64,000 nucleotides of DNA, taken from positions 32,682 to 96,681 of the IMG/VR virus record IMGVR_UViG_3300042691_040495; one strand, 5' to 3'. Below, piece after piece: positions 3,207-60,402 of this stretch. The notes below the pieces were generated by a model. That model was not told the origin of the DNA. It did not search any database and worked only from the letters and a program-made list of their open reading frames with translations. The position numbers and the translations under genes are program-made. This DNA is from a virus. Every line of letters starts with the position of its first letter. Position 1 is the stretch's first letter.

Positions 3207-3207
3207 T

Positions 3208-3215: not shown

Positions 3216-3236
3216 ATAATCTTATGGAGAAAACAT

Positions 3237-3560: not shown

Positions 3561-3572
3561 ACAAACTCTATC

Positions 3573-3582
3573 GGTGTATTAC
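3573..3582 (+). promoter_or_regulatory. GGTGTAW motif (candidate phage promoter)
   Basis: GGTGTATTAC in the gap, 45 nt before ATG 3618. Confidence 0.5.
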
Positions 3583-3617
3583 TATATATAGGGCTTCTTT
3601 TAGGAAAGGTATTATAT

Positions 3618-28600: not shown

Positions 28601-30265
28601 ATGATGAAACAAAAACTTAAAATCTTGATGTGCTCCGAAGCCAGCTTTATCAATTCTGGTTTTGGAATTTATACTAAAGAACTTCTTAATAGATTATACG
28701 ATACAAATAAATACGATATAGCAGAATTTGCTTCGTATGGTTTTGTTAATGATCCTAGAGATGTTTCCATTAGATGGAAGTATTATGCCAATGCCGTTAA
28801 AGATACAGATCCAAGACACAAAGAATACACATCACGAGGAGATAACCAGTTCGGAAGATGGCGTTTTGAAAAAGTTCTTTTAGACTTTAAACCAGACGTT
28901 GTGATAGATATCAGAGATTACTGGATGACCGCCTACCAGAGAATATCCCCTCTGCGTAAATTTTTTCATTGGATATTAATGCCAACTGTAGATTCGTCTC
29001 CACAACAAGAAGAATGGATTGATACATTTTTAGATGCTGATGCTATTTTCACATATTCTGATTGGGGTGCCGAAGTATTACAGAACCAAGCTTCTGGTAA
29101 AATCAACTATATAGATACAACATCTCCGGGTGTTGATTGCAATATTTTTAGACCCAAAGATAGAACCTCAATTAGGTCGGCTTTTGGAATAGACCAAGAT
29201 AGTTTTATTGTTGGATCGGTTATGAGAAACCAAAAAAGGAAATTAATACCCGAACTTTTTGCATCATTCAGAATTTTGTTAGATAGGCTAGAGGCAGATA
29301 ACAACAAAGAATTAGCAAATAAAATATTCTTATATCTACACACCAGTTATCCAGATATGGGTTGGGACATACCCGAAATACTTAGACAAAATAGATTAAC
29401 CAACAAAGTACTATTCACATATTTATGTAAAAACTGTGGAAGAGTTTCCTGTTCAAAATTTCAAGGACCAAGCAAAGTTTGTGAACGATGCTTATCTAAA
29501 TCTAATAATTTTCCATCTGTTACTGAGGGTGTCAGTTCAGAAGATTTAAGCAATATATATAATATATTTGACTTATATGTACAATATTCTATTTGCGAAG
29601 GATTCGGGATGCCACAAGTCGAAGCTGGAGCGTGTGGTGTTCCTATTGCCACTGTTAATTATAGTGCTATGTGTGATATCGTAGATAAACTGAATGCTTA
29701 TCCAATAAAAATTAAATCAGCATTTAAAGAGTTAGAAACAAAAGCCATCAGAGTATATCCAGATAATGAAGATTTAGCAGAATATATCCTGAATATAGCT
29801 TCTCAACCCAAACCGGTTCTTGATAAAAAGCGATTTGAAACCCATGAATTGACACACAAATATTATGATTGGAATAATACTTTTAAGAAATGGGAAAAAT
29901 ATTTAGATAGTTTGGATTCATCTGGATACAGATCAAATTGGAATACTGGAGACTATTTACAGCCATTAACTGGCAATACTGATAATATTACTAGTAATAA
30001 TTTTGATAATGTGCTGCATATGTTAAATAATAATATGAAAAATGCATCAATGATTGGTAGTCAAAAAATATTAGAATTACTAAATAGCGCTGATTATGGT
30101 TTTGTTCAAAATGGACCAACTAGTATTATGGGATATAGTTTTAATGATCTTAAAGAATACATCAGAACATCCATAGATAATAATAATCAAGCAAAACAAG
30201 CAAAAGATAACAATGTTAAATTTGATGAAGATTTTATCTTATATTCAAGACTGAAGAATAAATAA
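28601..30265 (+). CDS. GT4 (GT-B) glycosyltransferase with inserted Zn ribbon
   Basis: SGFGIY, RNQKRK, EGFGMPQVE (Ex7E intact); insert CKNC..C..CERC. Confidence 0.85.
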   Translation: MMKQKLKILMCSEASFINSGFGIYTKELLNRLYDTNKYDIAEFASYGFVNDPRDVSIRWKYYANAVKDTDPRHKEYTSRGDNQFGRWRFEKVLLDFKPDVVIDIRDYWMTAYQRISPLRKFFHWILMPTVDSSPQQEEWIDTFLDADAIFTYSDWGAEVLQNQASGKINYIDTTSPGVDCNIFRPKDRTSIRSAFGIDQDSFIVGSVMRNQKRKLIPELFASFRILLDRLEADNNKELANKIFLYLHTSYPDMGWDIPEILRQNRLTNKVLFTYLCKNCGRVSCSKFQGPSKVCERCLSKSNNFPSVTEGVSSEDLSNIYNIFDLYVQYSICEGFGMPQVEAGACGVPIATVNYSAMCDIVDKLNAYPIKIKSAFKELETKAIRVYPDNEDLAEYILNIASQPKPVLDKKRFETHELTHKYYDWNNTFKKWEKYLDSLDSSGYRSNWNTGDYLQPLTGNTDNITSNNFDNVLHMLNNNMKNASMIGSQKILELLNSADYGFVQNGPTSIMGYSFNDLKEYIRTSIDNNNQAKQAKDNNVKFDEDFILYSRLKNK

Positions 30266-30269
30266 ACCA

Positions 30270-31268
30270 ATGAATATCTTATATATAGGGCCGTATAGAC
30301 AAAAGGGTGTGATCGGAATAACTTCTCTTTTCGTATTAGCCAATTTGTTGTCAAAGTCTAATACAAAAATTAGTGCAAGACCGATTTATCTGAATAATTG
30401 TGAACCAGTAGATATTGGTGATAGTTCCATTCTTGCTAGCGAAAAAAATAGATTTGACAATTATGATATGGTGATACAGAATGTCGATCCTAAAGAAGCA
30501 ATCAAAATTCATTCTGTTCCGAAAAATGTTATTATACCAATTTTAAATGAGAGAATATTGGATGAAAACACCATCAGTAAACTTTTGGATTTTGATTTGG
30601 TTTTAACAGATACAAAAAATGCTTATGCTAGAATTGCAAATACCAATCATAAATTATCAAATAAAACCAAAAATTATGATTATGACATCCCCATGTCTTC
30701 AATACCAAAGAATAAATTTAATATAGGTATTTTAGACAATACTAAAAAATTGTATTTTATTGGTAGTTATAAACATAATGTAACCAATATTAATTATCTA
30801 TGCAAGTCTTTCATCAGAAATACATTGAACAATGAATGTTCTTTGATACTGTTTTTATTTGATATAGACGCAAAAATTAAGAATGATATTGAAAGTATGA
30901 TATCTAAGATATATAATGAAAACGATATAAAACACACAATCAATAGAGTTATTGTTGCTCCTATAGACTCTACAATAGATAATATACTTGTTGCCCATCA
31001 AACGGGTGATATTTTCATAGACTTACAAGACGATAATACAAATACGTTAAATAACAAGTTGGCTACTATTCTTAACAAATCTATAGTTTCATTTACTGTA
31101 GATGATTATGAGTATAATTATGATAGAAATCATTGTATATACGAAACTGGCTGCTCTGGAGTGTCATATAAATCGATAGACACAAAAATCAAAAGAGCAA
31201 TATCAGATAAAACATATAGTGAAACTATAATACCATTTAAGAAACAACATATTAATAAAATTATATGA
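30270..31268 (+). CDS. Degenerate GT-B glycosyltransferase-like protein
   Basis: MNILYIGPYR, LYFIGSY, HQTGDIFI match the GT4 layout, but the RK and Ex7E motifs are absent. Confidence 0.6.
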   Translation: MNILYIGPYRQKGVIGITSLFVLANLLSKSNTKISARPIYLNNCEPVDIGDSSILASEKNRFDNYDMVIQNVDPKEAIKIHSVPKNVIIPILNERILDENTISKLLDFDLVLTDTKNAYARIANTNHKLSNKTKNYDYDIPMSSIPKNKFNIGILDNTKKLYFIGSYKHNVTNINYLCKSFIRNTLNNECSLILFLFDIDAKIKNDIESMISKIYNENDIKHTINRVIVAPIDSTIDNILVAHQTGDIFIDLQDDNTNTLNNKLATILNKSIVSFTVDDYEYNYDRNHCIYETGCSGVSYKSIDTKIKRAISDKTYSETIIPFKKQHINKII

Positions 31269-32143
31269 ACAACATTACTAATTCTATTTTAAATATAGCA
31301 TATGGTACACTAAATAATAGAATCAATATTCTTTATTCTCCTAGTTCTAGATTATTTGATAATATTATAAATGATATTGATGAGATAAATTTATTTTTTG
31401 ATGGAGATGAAGTATCTGACTATTACTATGATTGTTATTTTTCAAATAACTTTTTATTACATACAAACCAAACAAAAAAATTATCAAATCAGTCCCACCT
31501 AAAAGATATTATAGGATTCCATTCTCCTCCACCATCAAATTTCAAAAAAGAAGATCTGGCGCTATTACAAAATAATACCCAAAATATACATAAGATTTTT
31601 TTTAGTGAACATGTTTTACAATCGTGGGGGTATCCTAGAGATAATAAAACAAAACTAATAAACTATGGTATTCCTATCACAGAACAATCGATTACCAGAC
31701 ATAAAAATGTTTTAATATTCAATTTAGAGAATAATCCTCAAATAGAATCTTTATATAATACAATATCTTCACATATACCAAATACAGATATTGTTAAGAC
31801 TATCAATCCTAATATACCTATCAATAGTGTTGGAGAGTTTCTGTCTCAATATAAAGTTTGTCTGGATTTTGGTAATATAGTTAATACTATTTTTGCAATG
31901 TCTTGCGGAGTAGAATGCATTTCGCCCATAACAAATGACCAAGACAATCCTCTTATGCATAGCGTTAGGGATTTTAACGATATATTAACTTTATTAACAA
32001 ATATTCTATCAAATAATACAGATAATCAAATAAGACAAGAAGGTTCCAAACTAATCTATTCAAAATATGATTACGATACTTTTAAAAATAATATGGTAGA
32101 ATATATAACCAATCTTAAAAAGAATGAGATATTTTTATTATGA
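31265..32143 (+). CDS. Degenerate GT-B glycosyltransferase-like protein
   Basis: INYGIP, FLSQYKVCLD, IFAMSCGVECIS (the E of EAM is replaced by F). Confidence 0.6.
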   Translation: MNNITNSILNIAYGTLNNRINILYSPSSRLFDNIINDIDEINLFFDGDEVSDYYYDCYFSNNFLLHTNQTKKLSNQSHLKDIIGFHSPPPSNFKKEDLALLQNNTQNIHKIFFSEHVLQSWGYPRDNKTKLINYGIPITEQSITRHKNVLIFNLENNPQIESLYNTISSHIPNTDIVKTINPNIPINSVGEFLSQYKVCLDFGNIVNTIFAMSCGVECISPITNDQDNPLMHSVRDFNDILTLLTNILSNNTDNQIRQEGSKLIYSKYDYDTFKNNMVEYITNLKKNEIFLL

Positions 32144-32556
32144 ACAGACACTATAATATAACATATAAAAACTATGTACCGAATAGTTCTAATAATCTAA
32201 ATATAGATTTATCTGAACTAGATAAAATAATTAATCACTCAGCAGACGGCATCTATTGTTCCTGTTTAAACTATGTAAAAGTTGAAGAAATAGATAATAT
32301 TTTTAACACACTAATTAATAAGGTTAAACCTGGTGGAACAATATTATTTAGTATATTAGATATGAAAACTTACGCAAATAACTTTTTGCACAATAAGATA
32401 AGCGGACAAGAATTTTTAAAAATTAATAGTAATGTACAATCAATATTATCTACAGAAGATATTTATACTAAAATAGATACAAATACCTTTAAAATCAAAC
32501 AAGTTCTACAAGAAGGTGGCACAATTGACTTGGCTATGGAAAGGATAAAGATATGA
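32140..32556 (+). CDS. Truncated/degenerate class I SAM methyltransferase-like protein
   Basis: DGIYCSCLNYV..LINKVKPGGTILF; no GxGxG motif I. Confidence 0.5.
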   Translation: MNRHYNITYKNYVPNSSNNLNIDLSELDKIINHSADGIYCSCLNYVKVEEIDNIFNTLINKVKPGGTILFSILDMKTYANNFLHNKISGQEFLKINSNVQSILSTEDIYTKIDTNTFKIKQVLQEGGTIDLAMERIKI

Positions 32557-33308
32557 ATAACATTAATACATCCTGCAAGAAATGCTACTTTGCTCAAGAA
32601 GCATCCTCTGAAAAATCTTGTGAATTTTATATACCCGATGCAGTATCCAATGCTAAAAAAATAGAAATTATTGATAATTACAACTATATTCATAATTATT
32701 TATGTAAATACGGTATATCAAATGATAAGGCAAACGAGATCGAAACAAATAAAAATGATATTAATATAAAAGAATATGCAAAAAATAGAGTTGCGCCCAA
32801 GTACGATCTCTTTTATATAGCAGATATTACGGATGATATAGAAAATATCTGTAATCAAATTATAAAACTAGAGATAAAACCAGAATGTATAAATCTAGCA
32901 TTTAGAATGGGTCATGACATGGGAAAAATCCAATCAGTCTGTGACAGGATATTGGGTAAAAGTGTCGCTTGGAAATTGCATTACTTTTTAGAAGATAAAC
33001 AAGATTATGAAATTTTACAAATTTCTACCTCAACCGATGAGAGATTGTCATCTTGTCAATTTATATGGATAGTCAATAGAGAAATTTTAGAATTAGCTAT
33101 CAAAAAAGATAGTATAAATAGAATTAATTATATAGTAAATGTTGATCAACCAGATTTAGCTATACTAATGAGTCAATCATCTTCAGATTATTTTTATGGT
33201 ATATTTCTAACAATAGAAAATATGAATGGAATATATAAAAATATTAGTGCTAATTTAGGTGAAGCAATCAAAGAATCGTACATGGATAATATATCGTATT
33301 ATGATTAA
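32553..33308 (+). CDS. Hypothetical protein with Cys-rich N-terminus
   Basis: TSCKKCYFA..C..C; coupled to both neighbours. Confidence 0.55.
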   Translation: MNNINTSCKKCYFAQEASSEKSCEFYIPDAVSNAKKIEIIDNYNYIHNYLCKYGISNDKANEIETNKNDINIKEYAKNRVAPKYDLFYIADITDDIENICNQIIKLEIKPECINLAFRMGHDMGKIQSVCDRILGKSVAWKLHYFLEDKQDYEILQISTSTDERLSSCQFIWIVNREILELAIKKDSINRINYIVNVDQPDLAILMSQSSSDYFYGIFLTIENMNGIYKNISANLGEAIKESYMDNISYYD

Positions 33309-33978
33309 TGCTCTAATACTGGTACCTGAAATCACGAAAGGAATGAAATCCATAGGATCAAAATCCTTACTTGAGATTAAAAAAAAACTATCAGTATTAG
33401 ACTATCAAATACAATCAATCAAAAATATAGATAAAAGTATCAAAATATCAGTTTGTACAGGATTTGACTCCGAAAGAATCATTGATAATATTAATGACAA
33501 CCATTCGAATATTAGCTATGTATATAATGAGAATTATAAAACTACCAATCAAGCGTATTCCATCAAGATATATCTAGAACAAAATACAAACTGCGATCAA
33601 CTTCTTATTGTTTCTAATGGTGTTTTATTCAAAGATAAATGTATTACCAAGACTATGCTAAATAATGAATGCAAAGTATTTCTACTAAATAAAACTCGTG
33701 AAAATTTTAATCTTGGATGTTCAACACAGCACCATTTTGAATATTTATTCTATGATTTACCAGAACTATGGTCAGAATGTATCTTTTTGAACAAAGAAGC
33801 ATTGACAGTATTACGAAATTTATTTACAAGTAACTATACAACACAAATGTATCTTTTTGAACTAATTAATGAAATGATTAATCAAAAAATAGTATTTAAG
33901 AAACAATATATAGACAAAAAATCAATTATGAAAATTTGTAATTTAAAGGATATAGCTAAAGCCAAAAATTTTATATGA
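33301..33978 (+). CDS. Degenerate nucleotidyltransferase-like protein (LicC/GT-A fold)
   Basis: ALILVPEITKGMKSIGSKSLL (vs AAGxGxR..PK), VCTGF, YNENYKTTNQAYSI, IVSNGV (vs GD). Confidence 0.65.
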   Translation: MINALILVPEITKGMKSIGSKSLLEIKKKLSVLDYQIQSIKNIDKSIKISVCTGFDSERIIDNINDNHSNISYVYNENYKTTNQAYSIKIYLEQNTNCDQLLIVSNGVLFKDKCITKTMLNNECKVFLLNKTRENFNLGCSTQHHFEYLFYDLPELWSECIFLNKEALTVLRNLFTSNYTTQMYLFELINEMINQKIVFKKQYIDKKSIMKICNLKDIAKAKNFI

Positions 33979-34709
33979 AAACCTTATTAGTACAAAACTC
34001 TAAATCTAAATTCATACAAACCAGTATGTACTGCACCATCCCTGATACTAATATCGTGGGAGCTATTATTGACAATAATCTATACAAAACATATTATTCA
34101 TACAATCCAACACATGCTATATTTTGCGCAAATAAAATTACTGAAGAAATTATTCAATTTATATCTGATTTTTCTGCCACAAAGATTAAGTGTTTCATAT
34201 ATCATGAAAACTTATCTTTTGAAATTCTTGATCATCTCAAAGAACTATCAGTAACTCATATTAGCACCATCAAAATTAAACCAGAGTACAAATCCGTTTT
34301 ACTACCTAAAAATTTAGTTAATACTAAATTATTTTATAATGACGAGTCTATTATTAAAAATGAATCAATAGTGTGTTTCATAGACGGATACGAAACTATT
34401 CCAGAGACCATAAATAATTACTTATATCCTAAAACTACTATTCCGATAAAACTATTTAATAACTATAAGATCCAACACTATCAGAATCTTGGATTGCTAG
34501 ACGAGCCAAATAAGGGAAATGTCCTACAGTCAAACAAATATTATTTGTCTCTAGAAAATAATAAAAATGACTATTCTTTAGAAGCTAGTATATGTGGCAG
34601 TATCATTTTAGATATAGGTAATATACAAAACTATACAGAAGTGACGTACAAGGAGCCAAAAGATTACAAAGATTGCGCAACTTTTATCCAAGAAAGTATT
34701 TTAATATGA
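33975..34709 (+). CDS. Degenerate GT-B-like protein
   Basis: LVNTKLF, QNLG, SLEASICGS resemble a GT4 C-terminal domain. Confidence 0.5.
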   Translation: MKTLLVQNSKSKFIQTSMYCTIPDTNIVGAIIDNNLYKTYYSYNPTHAIFCANKITEEIIQFISDFSATKIKCFIYHENLSFEILDHLKELSVTHISTIKIKPEYKSVLLPKNLVNTKLFYNDESIIKNESIVCFIDGYETIPETINNYLYPKTTIPIKLFNNYKIQHYQNLGLLDEPNKGNVLQSNKYYLSLENNKNDYSLEASICGSIILDIGNIQNYTEVTYKEPKDYKDCATFIQESILI

Positions 34710-35161
34710 ATGATGTAGGCTTTGTATTGGTTAAAATTTTTAACGATGATGTACACGATACTATACTTTCTACTATTAAAGAGGTAGAAAAAAATAATCC
34801 ATATAATCAAACTGTTGTATTTAACAGTTATTGTGATAAGTCTAATGTATATAACTTACCGATACTGCATCTGAGTCAATCTCAATTTTTCAATGGAACA
34901 CTCTTTGTATTTGATTTACCCAGTGTTATACTTACTAGTAAATTTCCTAATCTAAAAAAGAGAATATTATATACTGGAGCATTACCTTGGGCAACCAATC
35001 CTGGTACAAGATACGACGAGTGGCGTTCTCTTTATGATCAAAATTCATTAGATATTTTAGTTAATGATATTGATACTTATAATATATACAATATATGCTG
35101 GAAAAAACCAATAGGAATATCTGAAAGGTTCAATTATGAAGAAGTCTCAAAATTCATATGA
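34706..35161 (+). CDS. Hypothetical protein (possible single Rossmann-like domain)
   Basis: ATGA overlap start; last gene of the sugar-enzyme-like cluster. Confidence 0.55.
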   Translation: MNDVGFVLVKIFNDDVHDTILSTIKEVEKNNPYNQTVVFNSYCDKSNVYNLPILHLSQSQFFNGTLFVFDLPSVILTSKFPNLKKRILYTGALPWATNPGTRYDEWRSLYDQNSLDILVNDIDTYNIYNICWKKPIGISERFNYEEVSKFI

Positions 35162-35933
35162 TAAATTATCTGATACCGATAAATTAAAACTTATAACTGA
35201 TCTTTATGTTAATGAAAAACATAGCTTTGCTGATATAGCATCTATGCATGGAACATATGCTAATAAAATAAGAAGAGATGCAAAAAAATTTAAATTAGAA
35301 ATAAGAGATAAATCAGAAGCGCAAAAAAATGCTTTAAAATCTGGTAAGCATACTCATCCCACCAAAGGTAAACAGCGCTCAGAGTTTACAAAAAGCCAAA
35401 TCGGCAAAGGCGTTATGCAGTCCTGGGATGAACTTACAGAAAAAGAACTTGCTGACAGAAAAAAGAAAGCAAAGTTAAATTGGGATCAACTAGATCACGA
35501 TAAGAAAATTTATATGCAGCAATCTGCTATTAAAGCAGTTAGAGAAACCAGTAAAACAGGATCAAAATTAGAAAAATTCATTCATAAAAAACTGTTAAGT
35601 ATTGGATACCAAGTTCAATTTCATAAAGAACAATCATTGGTAAATACAAAGTTGCAAATTGACATTTTCTTACCTAGTATAAATACGGCCATCGAAGTGG
35701 ATGGACCATCTCACTTTGAGCCAGTATGGGGAGAAAAAAGTTTGGCTAGAAATGTTGGATATGATCAAAAAAAGGAAGGATTAATCACAGGACGCGGATG
35801 GCATCTTATACGAATCAAGCAATTAAAAGACTATTCACCAACAAGAGCATCTGAAATTGTTAACAAGTTAATTCCGATATTAGATAATTTATCACAACAA
35901 AATGTGCCACAAAAAATTAATATAGAGGACTAA
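35136..35933 (+). CDS. Free-standing homing-endonuclease-like protein (HTH + Vsr/EDxHD-like nuclease)
   Basis: N-terminal SFADIASMHGTYANKIRR HTH, HPTKGKQRSE NUMOD-like segment, QIDIFLP, IEVDGPSHF. Confidence 0.7.
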   Translation: MKKSQNSYDKLSDTDKLKLITDLYVNEKHSFADIASMHGTYANKIRRDAKKFKLEIRDKSEAQKNALKSGKHTHPTKGKQRSEFTKSQIGKGVMQSWDELTEKELADRKKKAKLNWDQLDHDKKIYMQQSAIKAVRETSKTGSKLEKFIHKKLLSIGYQVQFHKEQSLVNTKLQIDIFLPSINTAIEVDGPSHFEPVWGEKSLARNVGYDQKKEGLITGRGWHLIRIKQLKDYSPTRASEIVNKLIPILDNLSQQNVPQKINIED

Positions 35934-35935
35934 TC

Positions 35936-36667
35936 ATGGCTAAAAAGGACAAAGTTGAAAAAATGGAAGAAGCAAAAATGGATACAGTGGAACAAAAAAA
36001 GATTCCAAATATGACCGATTTAGAATGGACCGATTATGTATTAAGTCTATTATCTGATGATGAAAAAATTAATGGTAATCCTACAACAGACGGATTAAGA
36101 AGAGTATTTGAAATAGCATTAAATTGTAAAGTTGTAGTATCAAGTTCCAATGTTGTTCAAACCCCTGATCCAAATAACGAAAAACGAGCAACCGTGGTTC
36201 ATACTCTGTGCTACCATTTAAATGGCGGGACTCCAGAGACTAGTCATTTAAATATGATAACTGTGGATGGCGCCGCGGACGTTTATTGGGGTAATTGCGA
36301 CAAGGTTTATAGGAACCATCCCGTCGCTGTGGCAGAAACACGAGCAGAGGGCAGAGCATTAAGAAGAGCTTTGAAACTGAGAAAAGTTGTGGCCGCCGAA
36401 GAATTGGCCAAAGATATTGAGGATAATCCAGATAATAGTAGCGTATCTAAAATTAGTAATAATCAGATTAATTTTATTGACGTTATGTCTCAAAGACTTA
36501 ATATAAATGTGGTTAAGTTATTCAAAAATAATCAATTACCCACAGATAATATCTACTCTATGTCTCATGACGATGCTGTTAATGTTATTAGATTATTGTC
36601 AAAATACCAACAGAATATATCAGAGATATCAGAAGATATTATGGGCTACTCTAGCGATTGGAAATAA
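35936..36667 (+). CDS. Rad52/Sak-like single-strand annealing protein (putative)
   Basis: RATVVHTL, GAADV, AVAETRAEGRALRRAL helix; C-terminal ISNNQINFI module; GAGG SD. Confidence 0.55.
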   Translation: MAKKDKVEKMEEAKMDTVEQKKIPNMTDLEWTDYVLSLLSDDEKINGNPTTDGLRRVFEIALNCKVVVSSSNVVQTPDPNNEKRATVVHTLCYHLNGGTPETSHLNMITVDGAADVYWGNCDKVYRNHPVAVAETRAEGRALRRALKLRKVVAAEELAKDIEDNPDNSSVSKISNNQINFIDVMSQRLNINVVKLFKNNQLPTDNIYSMSHDDAVNVIRLLSKYQQNISEISEDIMGYSSDWK

Positions 36668-36669
36668 TT

Positions 36670-36996
36670 ATGAAAGTTTTATATAAAGCAAGTGATAAGC
36701 TAACTTTTGAACTAGAAGGTTCTGGTCAAAAAGAGATATTTAAAGAACTAGCACTAATCCAAGAGATTTTTGCAGAAGAAAAATGTGGACTATGTGGAAG
36801 TACCAATCTAAGATTCATAGTAAGAAATGTTGAAGGCAACGATTATTATGAATTAAGATGTGCTGATTGTGGTGCTATTCTGGCATTTGGTCAACACAAA
36901 AAAGGTGGAACATTATTCCCGAAGCGCAAAGATGACGAAGGAAATAATCTACCTAATAAGGGTTGGCATAAATGGACAGCAAAAGATAAGAACTAG
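36670..36996 (+). CDS. Zn-finger hypothetical protein
   Basis: CGLCGS...YYELRCADCGA, LFPKRKD, GWHKW. Confidence 0.7.
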   Translation: MKVLYKASDKLTFELEGSGQKEIFKELALIQEIFAEEKCGLCGSTNLRFIVRNVEGNDYYELRCADCGAILAFGQHKKGGTLFPKRKDDEGNNLPNKGWHKWTAKDKN

Positions 36997-53634: not shown

Positions 53635-56580
53635 TTAAGCTATATCAATCCAATTATAAGCATAACCAGTTCTTACTGTCCATGTTACACAATCAGTTGA
53701 AGTATAACTAATACTAGAATTTATTCCTATTAAAATAAATTTACTATTTTTATATATTGCTAAACTACCGTTAGTAAAATATGTTGGCGAAGCACTCGTC
53801 CAAGATGTTCCGTTTGATGATCTTAATATTGTGGATCCTGGTCCTGTAATTAAATATACTCCATTTCCATATGATATACTTTTGGGTGAAGATACGGATA
53901 CGATAGATGTAGATGTCCAATTAATTCCATCACTACTAACTAACACCACACTACCGCTATATGATGCATCAACTATCATAAATTGATTATTCACATACTC
54001 TAATACTCCCCAATTTTTGCTAACAGGAAGAGATCTTTGGGTCCAAGATACTCCTCCGTTATCAGAAGTAGCATAACTTGATGAATTTTCTGCTATTGCT
54101 ACTAGTAGATTATTTCCATATGAAACTAGTTTCCAGTTTGATGTTGCTGGTAAAGACGCATACGTGACAAGATACACGCTACCATTTATAAATTTGATAA
54201 TAGCAATTTCTGAACTAGTATTTGCAGTTAATATAAAATTATTATTAATTGGATCATATGTTGAGCTAACCCATAAAGGAATCAGTCCAACCAAATCATC
54301 GCTCATATCATATGATTGCCAAGTTATTCCATTATCATTAGAATAATTTATTACAAAACTATTATATGAAGCGGCTAAAAATATACCATTCCCATACGAT
54401 AGGGTTGTCCAAAGAGTATTAGAAGTTAAATTCTTTAAGCTCCAAGTGGTTCCTGTGTCAGAAGAAACCATAGTCTTATCAGAATTATACCCTAATGCAA
54501 CAGCATTAGGAATAGGAATAGGATTAGTTGTTGATGGCGTAACTGTAATGGTAGGAGTAACAGTAATTGTTGGGGTGACAGTTATAGTTGGAGTCATTGT
54601 TCTAGTTGGCGTTATGCTAGAGGTAACACTTATTGTGGGTGTTGTTGTCTTGGTTAAACTAGGACTAACTGTCGGAGTAACAGTTGAGGTTATGGTTGGA
54701 GTAACACTAACCGAAATAGTAGGAGTCGGAGTAGATGTTTCGGTTATTGTTGGAGTTATACTAATAGTTGGCGTAACGGTAATAGTAGGGGTATTGCTAT
54801 TAGTTGGAGTAACTGTTGGAGTATTTGTAACAGTATTAGATGGGGTTATACTTATAGTAGGTGTTATTGTTGCTGTAACTGTTGGAGTATTAGTAGGCGT
54901 TCGTGTTGGCGTCAAAGACTTCGTTGGAGTTGATGTTACCGTTGGTGTTGGACTACTTGTTGCTGTTAAACTTATTGTAGGAGTTATTGTAGATGTTATA
55001 GTTGGAGTTACAGATACTGATACTGAAACTGTTGGAGACGGAGATATTGTGGGTGTCAATGACACTGTTGATGTTGTAGTTTTAGTAGGAGTAATAGTTA
55101 AAGTATTGGTTATTGTTGGCGAAGGAGTAATAGTCGATGTTACAGATATTGTTGGGGTTACTGTTGGAGTAGCCGTATTTGATGGTGTTATCGTATGGGT
55201 TGGAGTTGGTGTCACATTAGGAGGCTCATACAATACCGCAACATTTGGTACTAATTTACCCTGTAATAAAAATCCTTTATATAAAATTTCTATATCGTCG
55301 CCAGCATAAATAGAATTTTGATAAATTAATTGACCAATATTGATTGGCACAACAAAACTTTTTGATGGAGTTGGTGTTATTGTGCTTGTTCTTGTTGGTG
55401 TTTTTGTTGTTGTTTTGGTGGGCGTTACAGTTTTTGTTGTTGTTGGGGTTATAGTAATAGTAGGAGTAATTGTGGGTGTAACTGTACGAGTTTGAGATAC
55501 TGTTTTGGTTATTGTTCTTGTTGGAGTACATGATTGTGTACTGGTAATTGATGGAGTTTGAGTTTTAGTTGCTGTTAGTGATTTCGTTGGAGTAACAGTA
55601 CATGTAACAGTTTTAGTAGGTGTTTTTGTTGGTGTTCGCGTTGGCGTTGTGGTTTTTGTTGGTGTTGGAGTAGGGGTTGCTGTATAGCATACGCTTTCTG
55701 GATTAGTTTTGTAAGCATCTCCACTATCGGTAACTACAACATAACTAGGAGCACTATCACTTTGAGTAGCGTATGTCCAATATCCGGCATTTGAACCATT
55801 GCCCTTATAATATGCTGCTTTATACCATTCATTCTCATTCGGTATCCAATAACTATTTTTATTAGCAGCAATTGGTTTTGATGTTCCTTCTATCATTCCA
55901 TTGAGGTTATAAACTCCGACTTCAATATTACTACTAGGCGTTGCTCCATTATGTAACCAGTTCACATATCTTGCGGCGCAAAACCAATTAATAAAATTAA
56001 CTGGCTTATTACCCATATCTGTTTTTACATAATGAGTAAATCCTGTTGATGAAGATCCTGTTCTATAGATGCCTCCTCTTGGATCATCAGACATTTCAGT
56101 AACCCACAACGATAAAGCAAAATTCGAAGAAGATGCTACAGAATTTAAGAATTCAACGTATTCTGTGTTGGTTATTGGATATTTTTTAATTTGGTAATTA
56201 TAAGTTACAGATCCGTAATTATTATTATCAGAATCTCCAGTATTATTGCTATCGGTTACTAAAGCATAATTTGTTGAGTCTATAGATGATGAAGTTTTTG
56301 CTATTCTAAAACCAATATCATTTCTTTTACCGTCAACATAATTAATATCAGAATAGTTTTTAGCTAATTGACCACTAGAACTTACAAAAGATCCGCCCCT
56401 AAATTTAGCATATCCATCAACTAAAGTATCCAGTATCTCATTAATATTGCCACTTTGATCATAGGTTCCATAGTAACTAGAGATCCCATTTAATCCTACT
56501 GTTGATAAATTACCATTAATTCCATTCCAAATAGTTTGACTATTATAATTTGAACTATTACAATTATTTAACATATTCAA
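53635..56580 (-). CDS. Fibre/adhesin: permuted FGE-sulfatase (CLec) domain + Thr/Pro stalk + Asp-box beta-propeller
   Basis: YGTYDQSGN, RGGSF, IGFR, ITNTEYVEFLN, PVNFINW, IPNENEWYKAAY; TPT repeats; SSDTGTTW, SNDNGITW, SDNGGVSW, SSDGINW. Confidence 0.75.
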   Translation of the reverse strand: MNMLNNCNSSNYNSQTIWNGINGNLSTVGLNGISSYYGTYDQSGNINEILDTLVDGYAKFRGGSFVSSSGQLAKNYSDINYVDGKRNDIGFRIAKTSSSIDSTNYALVTDSNNTGDSDNNNYGSVTYNYQIKKYPITNTEYVEFLNSVASSSNFALSLWVTEMSDDPRGGIYRTGSSSTGFTHYVKTDMGNKPVNFINWFCAARYVNWLHNGATPSSNIEVGVYNLNGMIEGTSKPIAANKNSYWIPNENEWYKAAYYKGNGSNAGYWTYATQSDSAPSYVVVTDSGDAYKTNPESVCYTATPTPTPTKTTTPTRTPTKTPTKTVTCTVTPTKSLTATKTQTPSITSTQSCTPTRTITKTVSQTRTVTPTITPTITITPTTTKTVTPTKTTTKTPTRTSTITPTPSKSFVVPINIGQLIYQNSIYAGDDIEILYKGFLLQGKLVPNVAVLYEPPNVTPTPTHTITPSNTATPTVTPTISVTSTITPSPTITNTLTITPTKTTTSTVSLTPTISPSPTVSVSVSVTPTITSTITPTISLTATSSPTPTVTSTPTKSLTPTRTPTNTPTVTATITPTISITPSNTVTNTPTVTPTNSNTPTITVTPTISITPTITETSTPTPTISVSVTPTITSTVTPTVSPSLTKTTTPTISVTSSITPTRTMTPTITVTPTITVTPTITVTPSTTNPIPIPNAVALGYNSDKTMVSSDTGTTWSLKNLTSNTLWTTLSYGNGIFLAASYNSFVINYSNDNGITWQSYDMSDDLVGLIPLWVSSTYDPINNNFILTANTSSEIAIIKFINGSVYLVTYASLPATSNWKLVSYGNNLLVAIAENSSSYATSDNGGVSWTQRSLPVSKNWGVLEYVNNQFMIVDASYSGSVVLVSSDGINWTSTSIVSVSSPKSISYGNGVYLITGPGSTILRSSNGTSWTSASPTYFTNGSLAIYKNSKFILIGINSSISYTSTDCVTWTVRTGYAYNWIDIA
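54530..55680 (-). repeat. Mucin-like Thr/Pro low-complexity repeats (coding)
   Basis: Dozens of TPT(I/V)T/TPTKT units in two blocks (about 54530-55220 and 55370-55680). Confidence 0.9.
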
Positions 56581-56589
56581 TAGTTTCTA

Positions 56590-59500
56590 TTAAAAAGCAG
56601 AAGGATCCACTGTTACTGTTATGGTTTTGGATGGTATATTCATCATAGAATATAATTCTGGATCAACTGATCCTCCGAGAGCGCTGCCCATAAAAGATGC
56701 GTATAATTTTATTTTATATGCCCCAGGAGATTGTGTTAAGGTATACGACTTTAAAGTATTTGGAATAGTATAATTCCCAAGAAATGTATCGCTTGAATCG
56801 TATAGTGCTAGATAATATCTATATAATGATAGGGTTGTACTTCCCAAACTATAGGCGGAAAATGGATGTTCCCATGTTAATGTGATTCGTTCATTATATC
56901 CATTCACAGAAGTAATATATGGAGCACAATCATTATTATCATTAGTATTAATAGTATATTTATACCATCCAGCATTAAATAATCCCCATGATGCAGATAC
57001 TGATGTCCTAGGGTCTTGATTATTACTTAATACTCCACTACTATATCTATCATAACTAGTGAATAGTCTCATAAATAAAGGACGAGTATTATAAGATGAT
57101 AGCTTCCAATTATTAATTAATCCAATTATATTTACAGGAACTCTAAATGTTGAATCTGTCGTGGGATTTGCTCGAATATTATTATAACTTGCTATCCAAA
57201 CACTATCACTAATAATACTATTAGATGTATTTCCAATATAGAAACCAATATGATACCATTGTGGCAGACTTACTATGCCATTAGGGGAATTAACTAATTG
57301 ATCAGAATTCACACCATCCCACTGTATAAAAACATTATTTTCATATGATTTTACCATATAATTTCTTGCTGCTCTTGTATCAAGAGTTAAAGCATAATTA
57401 GGAGTAATAACCTTTGTGGTGCTTGGTGTTATGGTAGTTGTTGTTGTTATTGTTGGAGTATTAGTTGGCGTATATGATGGACTAACAGTGACTGTTGGTG
57501 TGATAGTTGGAGTTATTGTATTTGTTGGAGTAATTGTTGGAGTTACAGTTATTGTTGGCGTTATTGTGATTGTTGGCGTTATTGTGGGCGTTGATGTGGT
57601 TGTTATTGTAGGAGTAATAGTTGTTGTTGGAGTAGTAGTAGTTGTCGGCGTATTTGTTGGAGTTATAGTAGGAGTATTTGTATTTGTTGGAGTAAATGAT
57701 GGTGATATTGTTGGAGTAACTGTTCTAGTCGGATACGGAGTTTTAGTAACTGTTCTTGTAACCATCGGAAGTCTTGTTGCTCCAATTTCACAGTCATTAC
57801 TAAGGCTATCGCATTTTACTACAGTATTATTTTCATAAAATACATGAGGAAGAGGAGTACTTGTCGTGTTGATTCCAAAAGTATTAGTATAATCTCCATC
57901 TAACCATGTATCGCTTACTGGAGGAGCAGGGTATAGCGGGTTAGTAATATAATACAGCGCATTTTCTCCACCAACTGCGCTTTTTTGAAAATTCCAATAT
58001 GTTGTATAAGGAACCTGCGCTAGATTAGTTAAACCAATTCTGGGATAAGAATTTTTACCATCTTTGCTATAAAAATATTTTCCATGAACATCAGTAGTTG
58101 TTGACAAATAATAAGTTCCATTTAATCCATCTTCTACTGCTTGCTGTCCAGTAACAATAATATCACAACCATTCATTAGTTTACTTGTTAATACTAGCAT
58201 CTTCATTGGCCAATATTTAGTAATTTGAACCATAATTTGCTCTGTTGTACTAGAAGCAACGAATGGTACCATAGGCTTGTCTATACTAGCAATATATGGT
58301 GAATTTTCACTTAGAGTAAAATAAGCAACATATTTATTACCAGGAATAAGATTAGTAAAAGTTACTAAATGTCCAACATTTTGAGGTTCTGGGCCATTTC
58401 CATAAGGATCAATATCAGAACATGATGGACGATTATTGCTTTGAGTAGCATAAATATAAAATCCGCTAGGTATAGCAGAATAGAAGTCGAATACTCCAGG
58501 ACTTTCAAAACTATTAGTTGATGTATTGAATATACCAGGAGAAATAGTTATATTAGTACTAGGATTGTTATAAGTTATCTCAGTAACAGTAGACCATGCT
58601 CCGTTTGTTAAAATTTTCCAACCAGTTTTTACTGGTGGTATACTCTCTAAATTTTCAATAGGTAGGGTTGACGAATCTTCGAATGGATTACTATTAGTAT
58701 AAGACCATTTTACCACATCATTAATATTATTTGAATAATAGGCTGCTTTGTGCCATTCTCTTCTGGATGGAATATAGTATCTAGAACTTGTTGTTCTTCC
58801 TATATCAAATTGTCCGTAAGGAGACAAATTTGTAAAATCGTATGCGCCAGTTGTACTGTTGGTTGTACGAGGATTATCAACTCTATTATGAAGCCAATTA
58901 CAATATCTCATTGCCATAAAAGCTGTGACATAATTAACTGGTTTATTTTCCATATTTTGTAATACAGAATATTTTGAACCATTAGGATTGTTATAATCAA
59001 ATCCAACACCGCCATAAGAAGTATTAGACATAACTGAATTATATAGCAATCCAGAATGTCTACTAGCTAATTGACCATACTCATTGTAATAATCTGTTTC
59101 ATCAGCCATAATACCTTCAGGATCAACAGCATTCAAAAAACGAACGTATTCTTTATTTGTAACTTCCAAAGCAGATATTTTATAGTTAGTTTCTATGGGT
59201 CTAATAGCAAATGATACGGGACCGGCGATATCTCTGAATCCGGGAGTTAAAAAGTCTGCAGATTCATCAGTACTAGCTATAACTTCTGTTATTTTAGCAA
59301 AATTTGCACTATTTATATTTTTATTTATTTTATACCATTTTTTTCTATCTCTATGATGACCATATAGTACTGATCCGTCATTATTAAAACTTAACTGTAA
59401 TATTGCTGGTGTATCAGAGCCAGTTAATTGAGCGTGTTTAATTAATGTTGGATTTCCTCCTGTTGCTGTTGGAGTTAAATCTAAAACATAAAGAGTATTT

Positions 59501-60402
59501 GTTGATACAGAGGCGTATAGTCTGCCTGTGTACTTATCTATTGCAATATCTCCAAATTTATTATCTTCTGGAGCAATAGGTAATGAAACGCTCCACGTTT
59601 CTTGGCCCGTGGCCGTCGGAATATTATCCGATCCAGAATAAGAGAATAACATCTTATTTAGAGTATTTGTTCCTTCTCTAAAATACCAGTATCCACTAGC
59701 ATAATATGCAGCATTCCCTATTGATGTTATTAAATATGATGATGATGAAGATATTTGTGAGAATATTGGACTTATTGCTGACATATTCCACCAGTATAGT
59801 CCGGATGGATTTGTCTCATCTCCATCATATGTCAAATAGAGCTGACTTTTATCGTAATTATATGCTAAAGCATTTGCTGGAGCTTTTCCCCAAATGGATC
59901 CTGTGGCAAATACCAGGGAAGATATGGTTTTTTTAGGTATAATTTCAAAGATACCATTTTCTTCAGATACGCCATAAAGTCTAGAATATGGTAAGATATC
60001 AGTAGCAGATGATCCTGTAACTGTGACAAAATTACTTAAATTTAATGGATTACTAGTTGATGCTACTCTAAATCCTATATCTTTTTTTAAAGTGAGTGAA
60101 TTATAACTATTTGCACTATGAATTCCAACATTATTATCTAAATCAAATCTGGATATAGATCCACTACTACTGGAAAAAGATCCCCCAAGAGTTAATTTTG
60201 ATACACTGTATAATCCACTACCGCCATATCCACTGAAACTAACTGAATTTTCAATCCATTCAGCAACATTGCCTCCTTGATCATAAGTGCCATAGTAGCT
60301 GGAACTACCATTTAATCCAACAGCCGTTACATTGCCAGTAACCCCATTCCATACTACACAATTATTATAATTTGCCTTATTAAGACCGGGTATATCCAGC
60401 AT
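56590..60402 (-). CDS. Fibre/adhesin: permuted FGE-sulfatase domain with inserted propeller, Thr/Pro stalk and FN3-like C-terminus
   Basis: YGTYDQGGNVAEW, IGFRVAS, EVTNKEYVRFLN, KPVNYV, IPSRREWHKAAY; insert NALAY..GDIAID..LSFNNDG; ITLTWEHP. Confidence 0.72.
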   Translation of the reverse strand: MLDIPGLNKANYNNCVVWNGVTGNVTAVGLNGSSSYYGTYDQGGNVAEWIENSVSFSGYGGSGLYSVSKLTLGGSFSSSSGSISRFDLDNNVGIHSANSYNSLTLKKDIGFRVASTSNPLNLSNFVTVTGSSATDILPYSRLYGVSEENGIFEIIPKKTISSLVFATGSIWGKAPANALAYNYDKSQLYLTYDGDETNPSGLYWWNMSAISPIFSQISSSSSYLITSIGNAAYYASGYWYFREGTNTLNKMLFSYSGSDNIPTATGQETWSVSLPIAPEDNKFGDIAIDKYTGRLYASVSTNTLYVLDLTPTATGGNPTLIKHAQLTGSDTPAILQLSFNNDGSVLYGHHRDRKKWYKINKNINSANFAKITEVIASTDESADFLTPGFRDIAGPVSFAIRPIETNYKISALEVTNKEYVRFLNAVDPEGIMADETDYYNEYGQLASRHSGLLYNSVMSNTSYGGVGFDYNNPNGSKYSVLQNMENKPVNYVTAFMAMRYCNWLHNRVDNPRTTNSTTGAYDFTNLSPYGQFDIGRTTSSRYYIPSRREWHKAAYYSNNINDVVKWSYTNSNPFEDSSTLPIENLESIPPVKTGWKILTNGAWSTVTEITYNNPSTNITISPGIFNTSTNSFESPGVFDFYSAIPSGFYIYATQSNNRPSCSDIDPYGNGPEPQNVGHLVTFTNLIPGNKYVAYFTLSENSPYIASIDKPMVPFVASSTTEQIMVQITKYWPMKMLVLTSKLMNGCDIIVTGQQAVEDGLNGTYYLSTTTDVHGKYFYSKDGKNSYPRIGLTNLAQVPYTTYWNFQKSAVGGENALYYITNPLYPAPPVSDTWLDGDYTNTFGINTTSTPLPHVFYENNTVVKCDSLSNDCEIGATRLPMVTRTVTKTPYPTRTVTPTISPSFTPTNTNTPTITPTNTPTTTTTPTTTITPTITTTSTPTITPTITITPTITVTPTITPTNTITPTITPTVTVSPSYTPTNTPTITTTTTITPSTTKVITPNYALTLDTRAARNYMVKSYENNVFIQWDGVNSDQLVNSPNGIVSLPQWYHIGFYIGNTSNSIISDSVWIASYNNIRANPTTDSTFRVPVNIIGLINNWKLSSYNTRPLFMRLFTSYDRYSSGVLSNNQDPRTSVSASWGLFNAGWYKYTINTNDNNDCAPYITSVNGYNERITLTWEHPFSAYSLGSTTLSLYRYYLALYDSSDTFLGNYTIPNTLKSYTLTQSPGAYKIKLYASFMGSALGGSVDPELYSMMNIPSKTITVTVDPSAF
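57415..57765 (-). repeat. Mucin-like Thr/Pro low-complexity repeats (coding)
   Basis: TPTITPTNT-type tandem units. Confidence 0.9.

Follow-up and report, generated by a model that had tools for sequence, protein, structure and literature searches.

Within the DNA-replication genes of an uncultured freshwater phage, 3' of ssb, lies a cassette of eight genes for sugar-enzyme-like proteins (28601-35161 of the window, i.e., of the whole stretch of 64,000 nucleotides that was analysed). This raises the question of how many of these proteins are active enzymes and to which acceptor they would transfer sugars. The preliminary description proposed a single active glycosyltransferase (GT) with dead enzyme folds around it, and DNA or virion/host glycans as possible substrates. 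The explanation that we favour, with a little better than even confidence, is that the cassette is fixed in the replication module of a large, uncultured lineage of aquatic phages and that it would encode a soluble, modular glycan-assembly line, in which two or three enzymes at the least are active and degenerate paralogs are retained, with an acceptor that is likely a protein.

Layout and variation of the cassette

The features of the cassette and its boundary are the following:

g1, 28601-30265, + strand: canonical GT4 glycosyltransferase, 554 aa
CxxC..CxxC Zn-ribbon-like insert, g1 residues 276-297, 29426..29491, + strand: within the C-terminal domain
g2, 30270-31268, + strand: GT-B-like paralog of g1, RK and EX7E lost in the window clade
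g3, 31265-32143, + strand: GT-B-like, N-domain conserved, C-domain without donor Glu
g4, 32140-32556, + strand: 138 aa, resembles only the C-terminal half of a class I SAM methyltransferase
g5, 32553-33308, + strand: N-terminal Cys4 module and GT-A fold, no conserved DxD
g6, 33301-33978, + strand: LicC/IspD-like nucleotidyltransferase, non-canonical lysine-based loop
g7, 33975-34709, + strand: minimal GT-B glycosyltransferase, 244 aa, donor-site Glu-Ala retained
g8, 34706-35161, + strand: free-standing GT-B N-terminal domain, 151 aa
Boundary nuclease, outside the cassette, 35136-35933, + strand: phrog_559 (6e-14), overlaps g8 by 26 nt

The ORF of g1 opens at 28562; its relatives start with MMKQK, and hence 28601 was used. 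The tight packing of the eight genes described before was confirmed, six of the junctions being overlaps of 4-8 nt, but they are not the only genes between ssb and the annealase, as the nuclease gene brings the number to nine. This nuclease gene also weakly matches REase_MTES_1575 and other homing-endonuclease families. Operon companions of the cassette are genes for dNMP kinase, RNR, primase, helicase and Pol III, the base composition is 26-27% GC, and no transmembrane segments were found in any of the eight cassette proteins. All motif strings quoted earlier are present, i.e., RNQKRK (residue 209), EGFGMPQVE (333) and CKNCGRVSCSKFQGPSKVCERC (276-297) in g1, IFAMSCG in g3, and ALILVPEITKGM together with SNGVLF in g6. 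A Pfam cut-off is passed by g1 only (Glycos_transf_1, 45.3 bits vs. a cut-off of 26.4). Profile and structure searches place all eight genes in sugar-enzyme folds or fragments of these, in part by weak profile matches, in line with the sugar-enzyme-like layouts noted earlier.

Related loci were collected via g1 (69) and via the nuclease (44), with contigs shared between both sets and together ~70 distinct g1 sequences; the related viral contigs with the cassette number at least about 70. In every related locus spanning the interval it lies between ssb and the conserved nuclease, which is 40-81% identical and unchanged in position in the 44 nuclease-derived loci. Between relatives, the flanking genes are 60-98% identical and g2-g8 only 25-55%. 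Close pairs gave dN/dS values of 0.04-0.24 for each of the eight genes, which shows purifying selection and therefore that no cassette gene is decaying. Moreover, stops and frameshifts are absent from the window and from intact related loci, supporting the earlier argument against simple decay. The exception is L111, whose cassette is fragmented, probably by an assembly problem, because its flanking genes are fragmented as well.

Gene order, which had been suggested for comparison across related phages, is constant as to the position between ssb and nuclease but not as to content. A minimal cassette consists of g1, a g5-like gene, g6 and a small g8-like ORF; g2, g3, g4 and g7 are absent from it and are therefore accessory rather than parts of a fixed machine. 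The variable slots of relatives are filled by canonical GTs, epimerase/dehydratase and methyltransferase. As an example, the expanded cassette of L109 contains matches to Glyco_trans_1_2 (9e-24), Gly_transf_sug (3.5e-17) and epimerase/dehydratase (3e-40) as well as GT25, two GT47-like proteins and Methyltransf_11, and RgpF-like and DUF5672 proteins are encoded in the cassettes of L059 and L062.

GT-B paralogs and the donor-site glutamate

For g1, profile matches were obtained to Pfam Glycos_transf_1 (9e-12), phrog_2170 (2e-29) and PDB entries including BshA and Gtf1. R209, K214, E333 and E341 are invariant across 38 relatives, the identity to relatives (35-88%) is far higher than for g2-g8, and the acceptor-binding N-domain is conserved to the same degree as the donor site. 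g1 is the conserved anchor of the cassette and its probable priming enzyme. The Zn ribbon reported for g1 is present in the window, between the RNQKRK and EGFG motifs, but is not universal: C276 is invariant and all four Cys are retained in 31/38 sequences, while the L059-L067 clade has lost C279, C294 and C297 and still has the insert itself.

The GT-B assignment of g2 is based on profile comparison only, namely a full-length alignment with g1 (hhalign, probability 50%, E 1.7e-4) and PDB profile matches to GT1-family C-domains (2f9f, 1.1e-3). Among the 48 g2 rows, the 37 of window type are devoid of the RK/EX7E motifs, as had been noted for the window gene; g2 retains the invariant polar residues K160 and H243, and its dN/dS is 0.07-0.16 in close pairs. 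Orthologs reading GEGFSIPSFEAM and DRKN were identified by alignment in L051, L059-L064 and L067, and by a motif scan in L084 and L087. Similarly, the earlier observation that g3 has no donor Glu extends to its relatives, the canonical position being F/L/I/C/Y/V in 36/36 sequences. All invariant g3 residues (K94, K95, E96, D97, Y134, G135) are located in the N-domain, and short forms of 146-207 aa consist of the N-domain alone. The g3-slot homolog of L062 (327 aa) reads LEAMSCG and matches Glycos_transf_1 at 8e-15, and the g3-slot proteins of L104/105/108/113 carry TLEAM. The alignments demonstrate the loss from g2 and g3 of GT4 donor-site residues that are still present in orthologs of other lineages; the direction of loss is taken from sister lineages only, because the g1 tree was made by a quick method with midpoint rooting.

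An Atlas model of g7 (pTM 0.73) resembles GT4/CgeB-type GTs at TM 0.65-0.71 over residues 1-244. E203-A204, containing the second Glu of EX7E, is found in 34/35 relatives, and H168, Q170, N171 and K159 are nearly invariant. Therefore g1 is the sole gene with the full GT4 signature, as had been claimed, yet not the sole gene with a donor-site Glu. Over the window clade, to which 39 rows of the g1 tree belong, this Glu is present in 0/37 g2, 0/36 g3 and 34/35 g7 sequences. In the sister lineages L051, L084 and L087, g2 has the full EX7E and RK motifs and g7 reads Y/Y/D, and in L104-L113 it is the g3-slot protein in which TLEAM sits. The donor-site Glu rotates among the paralogs, which is a new result: it is held by g7 in the window clade, by g2 in sister lineages and by g3 elsewhere, and its loss from one paralog falls precisely in those lineages in which another has kept it. 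Some GT copies without the usual active-site residues are still held by selection, and the intact copy differs by lineage.

Fold fragments and divergent enzymes

The AF2 model of g8 (pLDDT 92.6) superimposes on PglA (8dvz) with a VIA Z of 13.6 over 145/151 residues (rmsd 2.5), and the top 40+ rows of its structure matches consist of GT4 enzymes, with the alignments covering the N-domain and the last helix. A search for a longer protein containing the g8 domain found none. The small last-slot ORFs of minimal cassettes are related to g8 (hhalign 95%), which is a universal core gene. For g4, a PDB profile search returned 19 weak matches, the majority SAM methyltransferases (best 4krh, 1.5e-3), aligned to one region C-terminal to motif I (post-motif I-III). 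Family members show scattered Pfam methyltransferase matches below threshold, and an upstream extension of the ORF is not possible. By these weak matches (E about 1e-3), g4 looks like the C-terminal half of a SAM methyltransferase, consistent with its earlier description as methyltransferase-like without motif I. A half GT-B (g8) and an apparent half methyltransferase (g4) cannot be self-sufficient enzymes.

The AF2 model of g5 (pLDDT 93.1) matches 6yv7 (6.5e-5) and other GT2s in Foldseek, with VIA Z 13.6-12 over residues 80-251. Its family comprises 286 representatives; among 134 wide relatives only the four Cys, T6 and W140/K141 are conserved, and the DxD site (175-177, NRE) is variable. The invariant polar residues of g5 include K141 and H143.

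EX7E is missing from GT-B families outside GT4, as is DxD from some GT-A families, and the lack of canonical motifs is no proof of lost catalysis. All eight proteins might be active, very divergent enzymes using new donors or chemistries, with no pseudoenzymes among them. Strong purifying selection, the invariant polar residues of each family (K160 and H243 in g2, FKKED in g3, K141 and H143 in g5) and the blurring of motifs by fast evolution at low GC would fit this, but it is quite unlikely given that g8 has no donor-binding domain, g4 misses the SAM-binding half, g3 is conserved only in the domain that other lineages keep alone, the wide g5 family conserves only its Cys4 module, and Glu loss in one paralog coincides with retention in another.

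In a PDB profile search g6 matches IspD (4kt7, 1.3e-3), 8/41 members match NTP_transferase below cut-off, and JGI names its relatives CTP:phosphocholine cytidylyltransferase-like, which agrees with the LicC-like assignment with an altered loop made before. Within the clade this loop, PEITKGMKSxGSK, hardly varies; distant orthologs read G-Y-R-M-K-S. g6 is a universal core gene present in every related cassette. The idea that g1 alone is active and that the other seven are dead folds building one multi-subunit machine around it could appeal to the single Pfam hit above cut-off, to g2 and g3 without donor-site residues and g5 without DxD, to the half folds g4 and g8, and to overlapping genes all under purifying selection. 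We regard it as highly improbable, since g7 retains Glu-Ala and other invariant polar residues, the basic loop of g6 is kept, minimal cassettes do without g2, g3, g4 and g7, and relatives carry canonical enzymes in the corresponding slots.

Acceptor and closest known systems

In the favoured assembly line, g6 would make or handle a nucleotide-activated donor and g1 would add the first sugar to an acceptor common to all these phages. Lineage-specific transferases would extend the chain, in the window g7 and perhaps g5, in relatives canonical GT4, CgeB-like, RgpF-like, DUF5672, GT25, GT32-like and GT47-like proteins, sometimes together with an epimerase and a methyltransferase. g2, g3, g8 and g4 are probably non-catalytic and may persist as acceptor-binding or adapter subunits, by analogy to GtfB beside GtfA. 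The acceptor would most likely be protein rather than DNA, e.g., the Thr/Pro-rich fibre proteins of these phages. Four Thr/Pro-rich proteins are encoded in this genome, and homologous fibre proteins in four complete relatives. The location of the cassette in the replication module, not adjoining structural genes, speaks against this explanation.

This location, between ssb and nuclease/annealase and in an operon with replication and nucleotide genes, would suit a sugar hypermodification of the phage DNA such as that of T4 or RB69/DLP3, as would the solubility of all eight proteins. An intein is inserted at the catalytic C-domain of g1 in several relatives, inteins being typical of DNA-metabolism genes. 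Furthermore, the RB69/DLP3 arabinosylation clusters of lytic phages are likewise set within nucleotide/replication genes and combine three GT4-like GT-B transferases, a LicC/MurU-like nucleotidyltransferase and a dNMP kinase (PMC13326640). However, those clusters also encode a ThyA homolog making 5-hydroxy-dCMP, a dCTPase, a sugar kinase, an isomerase and a phosphatase (PMC13326640), all absent here and in four complete relatives. Known pyrimidine sugar modifications need a pre-existing hydroxyl on the base (PMC13326640). No ThyA-family hydroxylase or hydroxymethylase was found in this genome or the four complete relatives, three of which have ThyX, and Tet_JBP gave no match in a search run without positive control. 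DNA is disfavoured as acceptor because searches of the four complete relatives revealed no ThyA-like or TET hydroxylase. In addition, expanded cassettes with nine extra genes (among them GT25, GT47-like and GT32-like ones) look like heteropolysaccharide synthesis, and the Zn-ribbon Cys are missing in one clade. DNA, one of the substrates suggested earlier, is decidedly unlikely.

Alternatively, the cassette might act on the host envelope at an early stage of infection, remodelling a glycan there (LPS, capsule or a lipid-linked intermediate) so that superinfection is excluded or re-adsorption to debris prevented. GT4, GT25, RgpF-like and GT32-like families are typical of LPS/polysaccharide pathways, the gene position suggests early or middle expression, and the rapid lineage-specific turnover resembles O-antigen clusters. 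This is nevertheless rather unlikely: membrane proteins of any kind are missing from the cassette, as are an initiating phosphoglycosyltransferase, a flippase and a polymerase (Pfam, transmembrane prediction), and phages of presumably different hosts share a highly conserved acceptor domain in g1, a pattern that better fits a phage-encoded or universal acceptor.

A protein acceptor is known from the accessory Sec islands of Gram-positive bacteria that encode GtfA/GtfB (PMC6973325, PMC7661464; PDB 5e9t/5e9u, 4pqg). In serine-rich-repeat protein glycosylation the conserved priming pair is GtfA/GtfB, of which GtfB is a chaperone, not a transferase; the extension GTs that come after the pair in these loci vary in number (PMC6973325). 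The phage cassette likewise has a conserved GT4-type, probably priming enzyme (Gtf1 being among its profile matches) beside a GT-B paralog, which in GtfA/GtfB loci is non-catalysing yet required, and extension GTs varying in number by lineage; all proteins are cytosolic. In contrast, no DUF1975 domain (Pfam) was found in g1 or g2, the cassette has no SecA2/Y2 genes, lies in a replication module, contains the extra half-fold proteins g8 and g4, and changes its catalytic paralog between lineages.

Mycobacteriophages and giant viruses have gene sets for virion glycosylation (Freeman et al. 2023, cited in PMC12619734), which adjoin structural genes and for which degenerate paralogs are not reported. 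Virus-encoded, lineage-specific soluble GTs are common to them and to the cassette. Among the structure/profile matches of g2 and g8 is PBCV-1 B736L (PDB 3oy2).

Split GT-B enzymes are Alg13/Alg14 and the bacterial Cps14F/Cps14G, which belong to the GT1/GT28 lineage and in which the obvious partner is a C-domain alone; such a C-domain-only partner was not found in the phage cassettes. As in these enzymes, the N-terminal domain exists as a separate small protein in g8 and the short g3 forms, but g8 resembles GT4 N-domains.

Genomic setting and maintenance of the cassette

The source record of the window (96.7 kb, about 70% complete), from an uncultured freshwater phage, carries a replication and nucleotide block that encodes class II RNR, PhoH, RecA, a DnaB-type helicase, primase, dNMP kinase, an exonuclease, a Pol III alpha split into two pieces that flank a DnaQ-like gene, and SSB. 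It is followed by eight plus-strand genes (g1 to g8, together the cassette), which are joined by one 4-nt gap and six overlaps of 4-8 nt, and by a nuclease gene that overlaps g8 by 26 nt, with the annealase gene next.

28601-30265, plus strand, g1, GT4-type glycosyltransferase
30270-31268, plus strand, g2, GT-B-like paralog
31265-32143, plus strand, g3, GT-B-like paralog
32140-32556, plus strand, g4, methyltransferase-related protein
32553-33308, plus strand, g5, Cys4 and GT-A-like protein
33301-33978, plus strand, g6, nucleotidyltransferase-like protein
33975-34709, plus strand, g7, GT-B-like protein
34706-35161, plus strand, g8, GT-B N-domain-like protein
35136-35933, plus strand, nuclease

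Scanning viral contigs with g1 resulted in 69 loci of 35-88% identity, and scanning with the downstream nuclease in 44 loci; the two sets overlap in contigs and together hold about 70 distinct g1 sequences. In the comparison of gene order across related phages that the preliminary description had proposed, the cassette lay between ssb and the nuclease in every locus long enough to span the interval. The flanking genes are 60-98% identical to those of the window and g1 is 55-88% identical, compared to only 25-55% for g2-g8. The GC content is 26-27% over 30001-34000 (g2-g7) and 30-35% in g1 and the flanks, the low-GC stretch coinciding with the fastest-evolving genes. Pairwise dN/dS values of close pairs (the window with L001 and L002, L001 with L002, L006 with L007; L numbers denote the related loci) range from 0.04 to 0.24 for all eight genes, with 0.04-0.05 for g1, showing that these genes are maintained and not decaying. 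As no stop or frameshift was found in any cassette gene of the window or of the intact related loci, the earlier view that simple decay is unlikely was borne out. Locus L111 (IMGVR_UViG_3300045125_000172) is fragmented into numerous short ORFs over the cassette and the flanking genes alike. This speaks for assembly errors rather than cassette decay; the likely cause is poor assembly quality or a different genetic code.

A blastn search of the cassette against cultured-phage records gave no match and tblastn of g1 found only distant glycosyltransferases of 22-25% identity in Synechococcus, Tetrasphaera and Microcystis phages, so the cassette has no cultured relative among these records. The 'Moraphages' were considered as the same lineage and rejected, since they use PolB (PMC12619734). 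Family searches with g5 and g6 resulted in 286 and 422 relatives, respectively, which would suggest many more relatives than the approximately 70 contigs in hand. Within these uncultured aquatic phages, a large group, the cassette is universal and evolves fast.

Next to the cassette, the nuclease gene is labeled HNH or homing endonuclease by PHROGs. It is in place in all relatives at 40-81% identity, and its C-terminal EVDG..H region weakly matches REase_MTES_1575, suggesting that it looks like a resident recombination-module nuclease rather than a mobile one. Downstream of the annealase, window positions 36658-36996 (plus strand) encode a 112-aa protein with a Zn-ribbon-like CxxC pair (CGLCGS..CADCG). 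It is among the best conserved of the region, being 64-97% identical to its counterparts in most relatives and 49-57% identical to those of the clade farthest away.

Predicted catalytic states of the eight proteins

The motifs quoted in the preliminary description were all found where it had placed them. Of the eight proteins, g1 alone scores above a Pfam cut-off (Glycos_transf_1, 45.3 bits versus 26.4; phrog_2170, 2e-29), and its profile search matches include BshA and Gtf1. Residues R209, K214, E333 and E341, i.e., the R/K pair and the EX7E motif of GT4 enzymes, are invariant in 38 sequences, invariant residues are equally abundant in the N-domain, and g1 is canonical in all lineages compared. 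Within the C-domain lies a CxxC..CxxC insert, the cysteines of which are kept in 31 of the 38 sequences. In L059-L064 and L067 three of the four Zn-ribbon cysteines are replaced by Thr or Ser while the insert (equivalent to window 29426-29491) is kept, suggesting that the metal site is dispensable for its role. Moreover, g1 of several relatives (L052:10001-12862, L053, L054, L068, L081, L096:5433-8297, L097) contains an intein of about 400 aa, recognized by Intein_splicing and LAGLIDADG_3 matches; it includes a LAGLIDADG domain and lies immediately ahead of the EGFG motif. To our knowledge, inteins in glycosyltransferases are unusual, and its presence suggests that the g1 enzyme is important to the phage.

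Over its whole length g2 aligns with g1 (hhalign probability 50%, E 1.7e-4), and its profile matches GT1-family C-domains in the PDB (2f9f, 1.1e-3). The window type of g2, present in 37 of 48 rows, has a DDNTNTLNNKLA-type sequence in which the RK pair and both Glu are missing; g2 of the window clade, which makes up 39 rows of the g1 tree, thus lacks the GT4 donor-site residues and is probably not active. Orthologs with GEGFSIPSFEAM and DRKN occur in L051, L059-L064 and L067, as seen in the alignment, and in L084 and L087, as found by a motif scan. For g3, the invariant residues are confined to the N-terminal half (FKKED 93-97, H86, W121), which is homologous (93%) to slot-equivalent genes of distant loci. 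The position of the donor-site Glu, the second Glu of EX7E, is occupied by F, L, I, C, Y or V in all 36 sequences and never by Glu, and g3 is for this reason probably not active; homologs in the g3 slot of L062 and L104-L113 do have this Glu (EAM). A PDB profile search with g3 found nothing meaningful, and Pfam searches run on all sequences aligned for g3 and for g7 gave scattered chance matches only. A reading of g3 and g4 as one frameshifted methyltransferase was rejected, since the g3 C-domain is GT-like and has AMSCG in common with L062.

The Atlas model of g7 matches GT4/CgeB-type clusters with TM scores of 0.65-0.71 over all 244 residues. E203-A204 is kept in 34 of 35 sequences, next to K159, H168, Q170 and N171, and we take E203 to be the EAM Glu of GT4. 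Window g7 has no Pfam match and could not be assigned to a family by profile; combining a two-Rossmann-domain fold with a donor-site Glu, it is probably an active glycosyltransferase. The g8 model (pLDDT 92.6) consists of a GT-B N-terminal domain and a returning C-terminal helix. It aligns with PglA (Z 13.6, 145 of 151 residues). GT4 enzymes fill the top rows throughout, with only their N-domain and last helix covered, so the two-domain GT-B fold is incomplete. A BFVD fold search gave only weak matches to full-length glycosyltransferases, a search for longer proteins with a g8-like domain found none, which is weak evidence, and PDB profile searches with g7 and g8 returned nothing meaningful. 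Judged from its model, g8 is probably non-catalytic with the donor-binding domain missing. That g7 and g8 form one frameshifted GT-B protein was rejected, because the domain order would be wrong and g7 already has the two domains.

The 138-aa protein g4 shows weak but consistent matches to the class I SAM methyltransferase region after motifs I-III. Both GxGxG (motif I) and the first, SAM-binding half of the fold are missing, the ORF cannot be extended, and no specific relation to the full-size Methyltransf_11 protein of L109 was found (hhalign 1.3%); g4 is probably non-catalytic. The g5 model (pLDDT 93) combines an N-terminal Cys4 module with a GT-A fold (Foldseek 6.5e-5; VIA Z 13.6-12, residues 80-251), and Atlas and PDB profile searches with g5 gave no usable or meaningful match. 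After strand 4 the window protein has NRE instead of DxD, and 134 wide relatives have N/D/K, A/S/P and G/N/S; only the four cysteines, T6 and W140/K141 are conserved among them, and the catalytic status of g5 appears ambiguous. Finally, g6 scores below the cut-off for NTP_transferase PF00483 (13.7 versus 21.2 bits), and its relatives are named CTP:phosphocholine cytidylyltransferase-like by the source pipelines. In the PDB its profile finds IspD at 1.3e-3 and other nucleotidyltransferases at about 1e-3, making a shared LicC-IspD-type fold likely. In the almost invariant loop PEITKGMKSxGSK, T-K-G-M-K takes the place of the canonical G-x-G-x-R; distant orthologs have G-Y-R-M-K-S, close to canonical G-x-G-x-R-M. 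With this conservation and these near-canonical orthologs, g6 is probably an active enzyme.

Lineage dependence of the donor site and modularity of the cassette

Donor-site states of g2, g3 and g7, with lineages grouped on a quick, midpoint-rooted g1 tree
Window clade (39 rows): g2 without EX7E and RK; g3 without Glu; g7 Glu-Ala kept
Sister lineages L087, L051, L084: g2 with full EX7E (e.g., GEAFCIPLAEGM) and RKN; g3 without Glu or undetected; g7 with Y, Y or D in place of Glu
L059-L067: g2 canonical (GEGFSIPSFEAM, DRKN); g3 N-domain only (146-207 aa), except L062; g7 absent
L062, g3 slot: 327 aa, LEAMSCG, Pfam Glycos_transf_1 8e-15
L104, L105, L108, L113: g2 without Glu; g3 a 320-aa protein with TLEAM; g7-like protein without Glu

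As judged from these alignments, which paralog has lost the donor-site Glu depends on the lineage, and the degenerate copies evidently are still under purifying selection. No other observation speaks as strongly for retained non-catalytic GT folds. The loss is apparently reciprocal among the paralogs; in L100 and L106 the Glu seems to be missing from g2, g3 and g7 alike. The preliminary description had regarded g1 as the sole active transferase among dead folds. Its observation of degenerate enzymes was confirmed and its interpretation is only partly supported, since the donor-site Glu resides in g2, g3 or g7 depending on the lineage, so that g1 would not stand alone as an active transferase. 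A conceivable but improbable reading has g2, g3, g7 and g8 as partners in one GT-B hetero-oligomer, of which only a single subunit would require a functional donor site. This site would have moved among g2, g3 and g7, with the others kept as specificity or acceptor-holding subunits. Such a complex might place a lineage-specific glycan, as an anti-defence coat, on a target linked to replication, either DNA or a protein bound to it. One gene family offers a natural experiment on degenerate GT folds across about 70 distinct phage contigs, making the role of such folds and the hopping of catalysis between subunits testable with few recombinant proteins.

Minimal cassettes (L085, L089, L095, L096, L110) contain only g1, a g5-like gene, g6 and a small g8-related last ORF. 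The expanded cassette of L109/L114 adds Glyco_trans_1_2, DXD-type Gly_transf_sug, GT25, two GT47-like proteins, an NAD-dependent epimerase/dehydratase and a Methyltransf_11 protein, and L059 and L062 encode RgpF-like and DUF5672 proteins. This suggests that the cassette is a glycan-assembly island with a fixed core of g1, g6, a g8-like and usually a g5-like gene, and with exchangeable extension enzymes. Sub-threshold Pfam matches to DraIII, CTD9 and DrmE_C were treated as chance.

Relation to known systems and candidate acceptors

Pseudo-glycosyltransferases are known from few cases such as GtfB. In GtfA/GtfB-type complexes a DUF1975 insertion mediates partner and acceptor binding; as a difference, DUF1975 was found neither in g1 nor in g2 (Pfam, E up to 0.1). 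The SRRP glycosylation island offers the closest working comparison: its conserved priming pair of GtfA and GtfB, the latter a GT-B protein with a chaperone-like role, precedes extension glycosyltransferases that vary in number (PMC6973325). Membership of the cassette in this type of system is not claimed. As a viral glycosylation gene set, the cassette represents an undescribed variant, distinguished by retained degenerate GT-B-like paralogs with a predicted lineage-dependent active member, by a universal free-standing GT-B N-domain protein and by a Cys4-GT-A protein without DxD.

Its product, be it on protein, DNA or the host envelope, likely matters for host range or defence evasion, and the strong conservation of the g1 acceptor domain suggests an acceptor common to all these phages. 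Sugar hypermodification of DNA would fit the position within the replication module and is paralleled by the arabinosylation clusters of RB69/DLP3, which encode three GT4-like glycosyltransferases, a LicC/MurU-like nucleotidyltransferase and a dNMP kinase (PMC13326640). However, the known phage pyrimidine sugar modifications start from a base hydroxylated via a ThyA homolog or a TET-type dioxygenase (PMC13326640), and searches of the phage's own genome and of four complete relatives, 175-244 kb in size, found neither enzyme: PF00303 (ThyA family) was absent from these genomes with control genomes positive, and PF12851 (TET/JBP) was absent in a search without positive control. ThyX (Thy1) is present in three of the four complete relatives (G002, G003, G004; loci L115-L117), whereas the 175-kb G001 and the phage's own 70%-complete genome lack it. 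Moreover, up to nine extra glycan enzymes per cassette appear too elaborate for base modification, and we regard DNA as an unlikely acceptor. The host envelope is somewhat more plausible and still doubtful: none of the eight proteins has a membrane segment, and an all-soluble cassette without phosphoglycosyltransferase, flippase and polymerase argues against a self-contained envelope-polysaccharide pathway. Other acceptors take the remaining share.

Our best guess, held tentatively, is a protein acceptor. Four proteins contain long Thr/Pro-rich tracts (TPT repeats) with more than 50% Ser+Thr in 60-aa windows:

53635-56580, minus strand, Thr/Pro-rich fibre protein
56590-60402, minus strand, Thr/Pro-rich fibre protein
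genome positions 123-2630, upstream of the window, Thr/Pro-rich protein
genome positions 2646-3596, upstream of the window, Thr/Pro-rich protein

These four are candidate O-glycosylation acceptors. Homologous fibre proteins are present in the complete relatives, with Thr/Pro-rich tracts among the matched parts.
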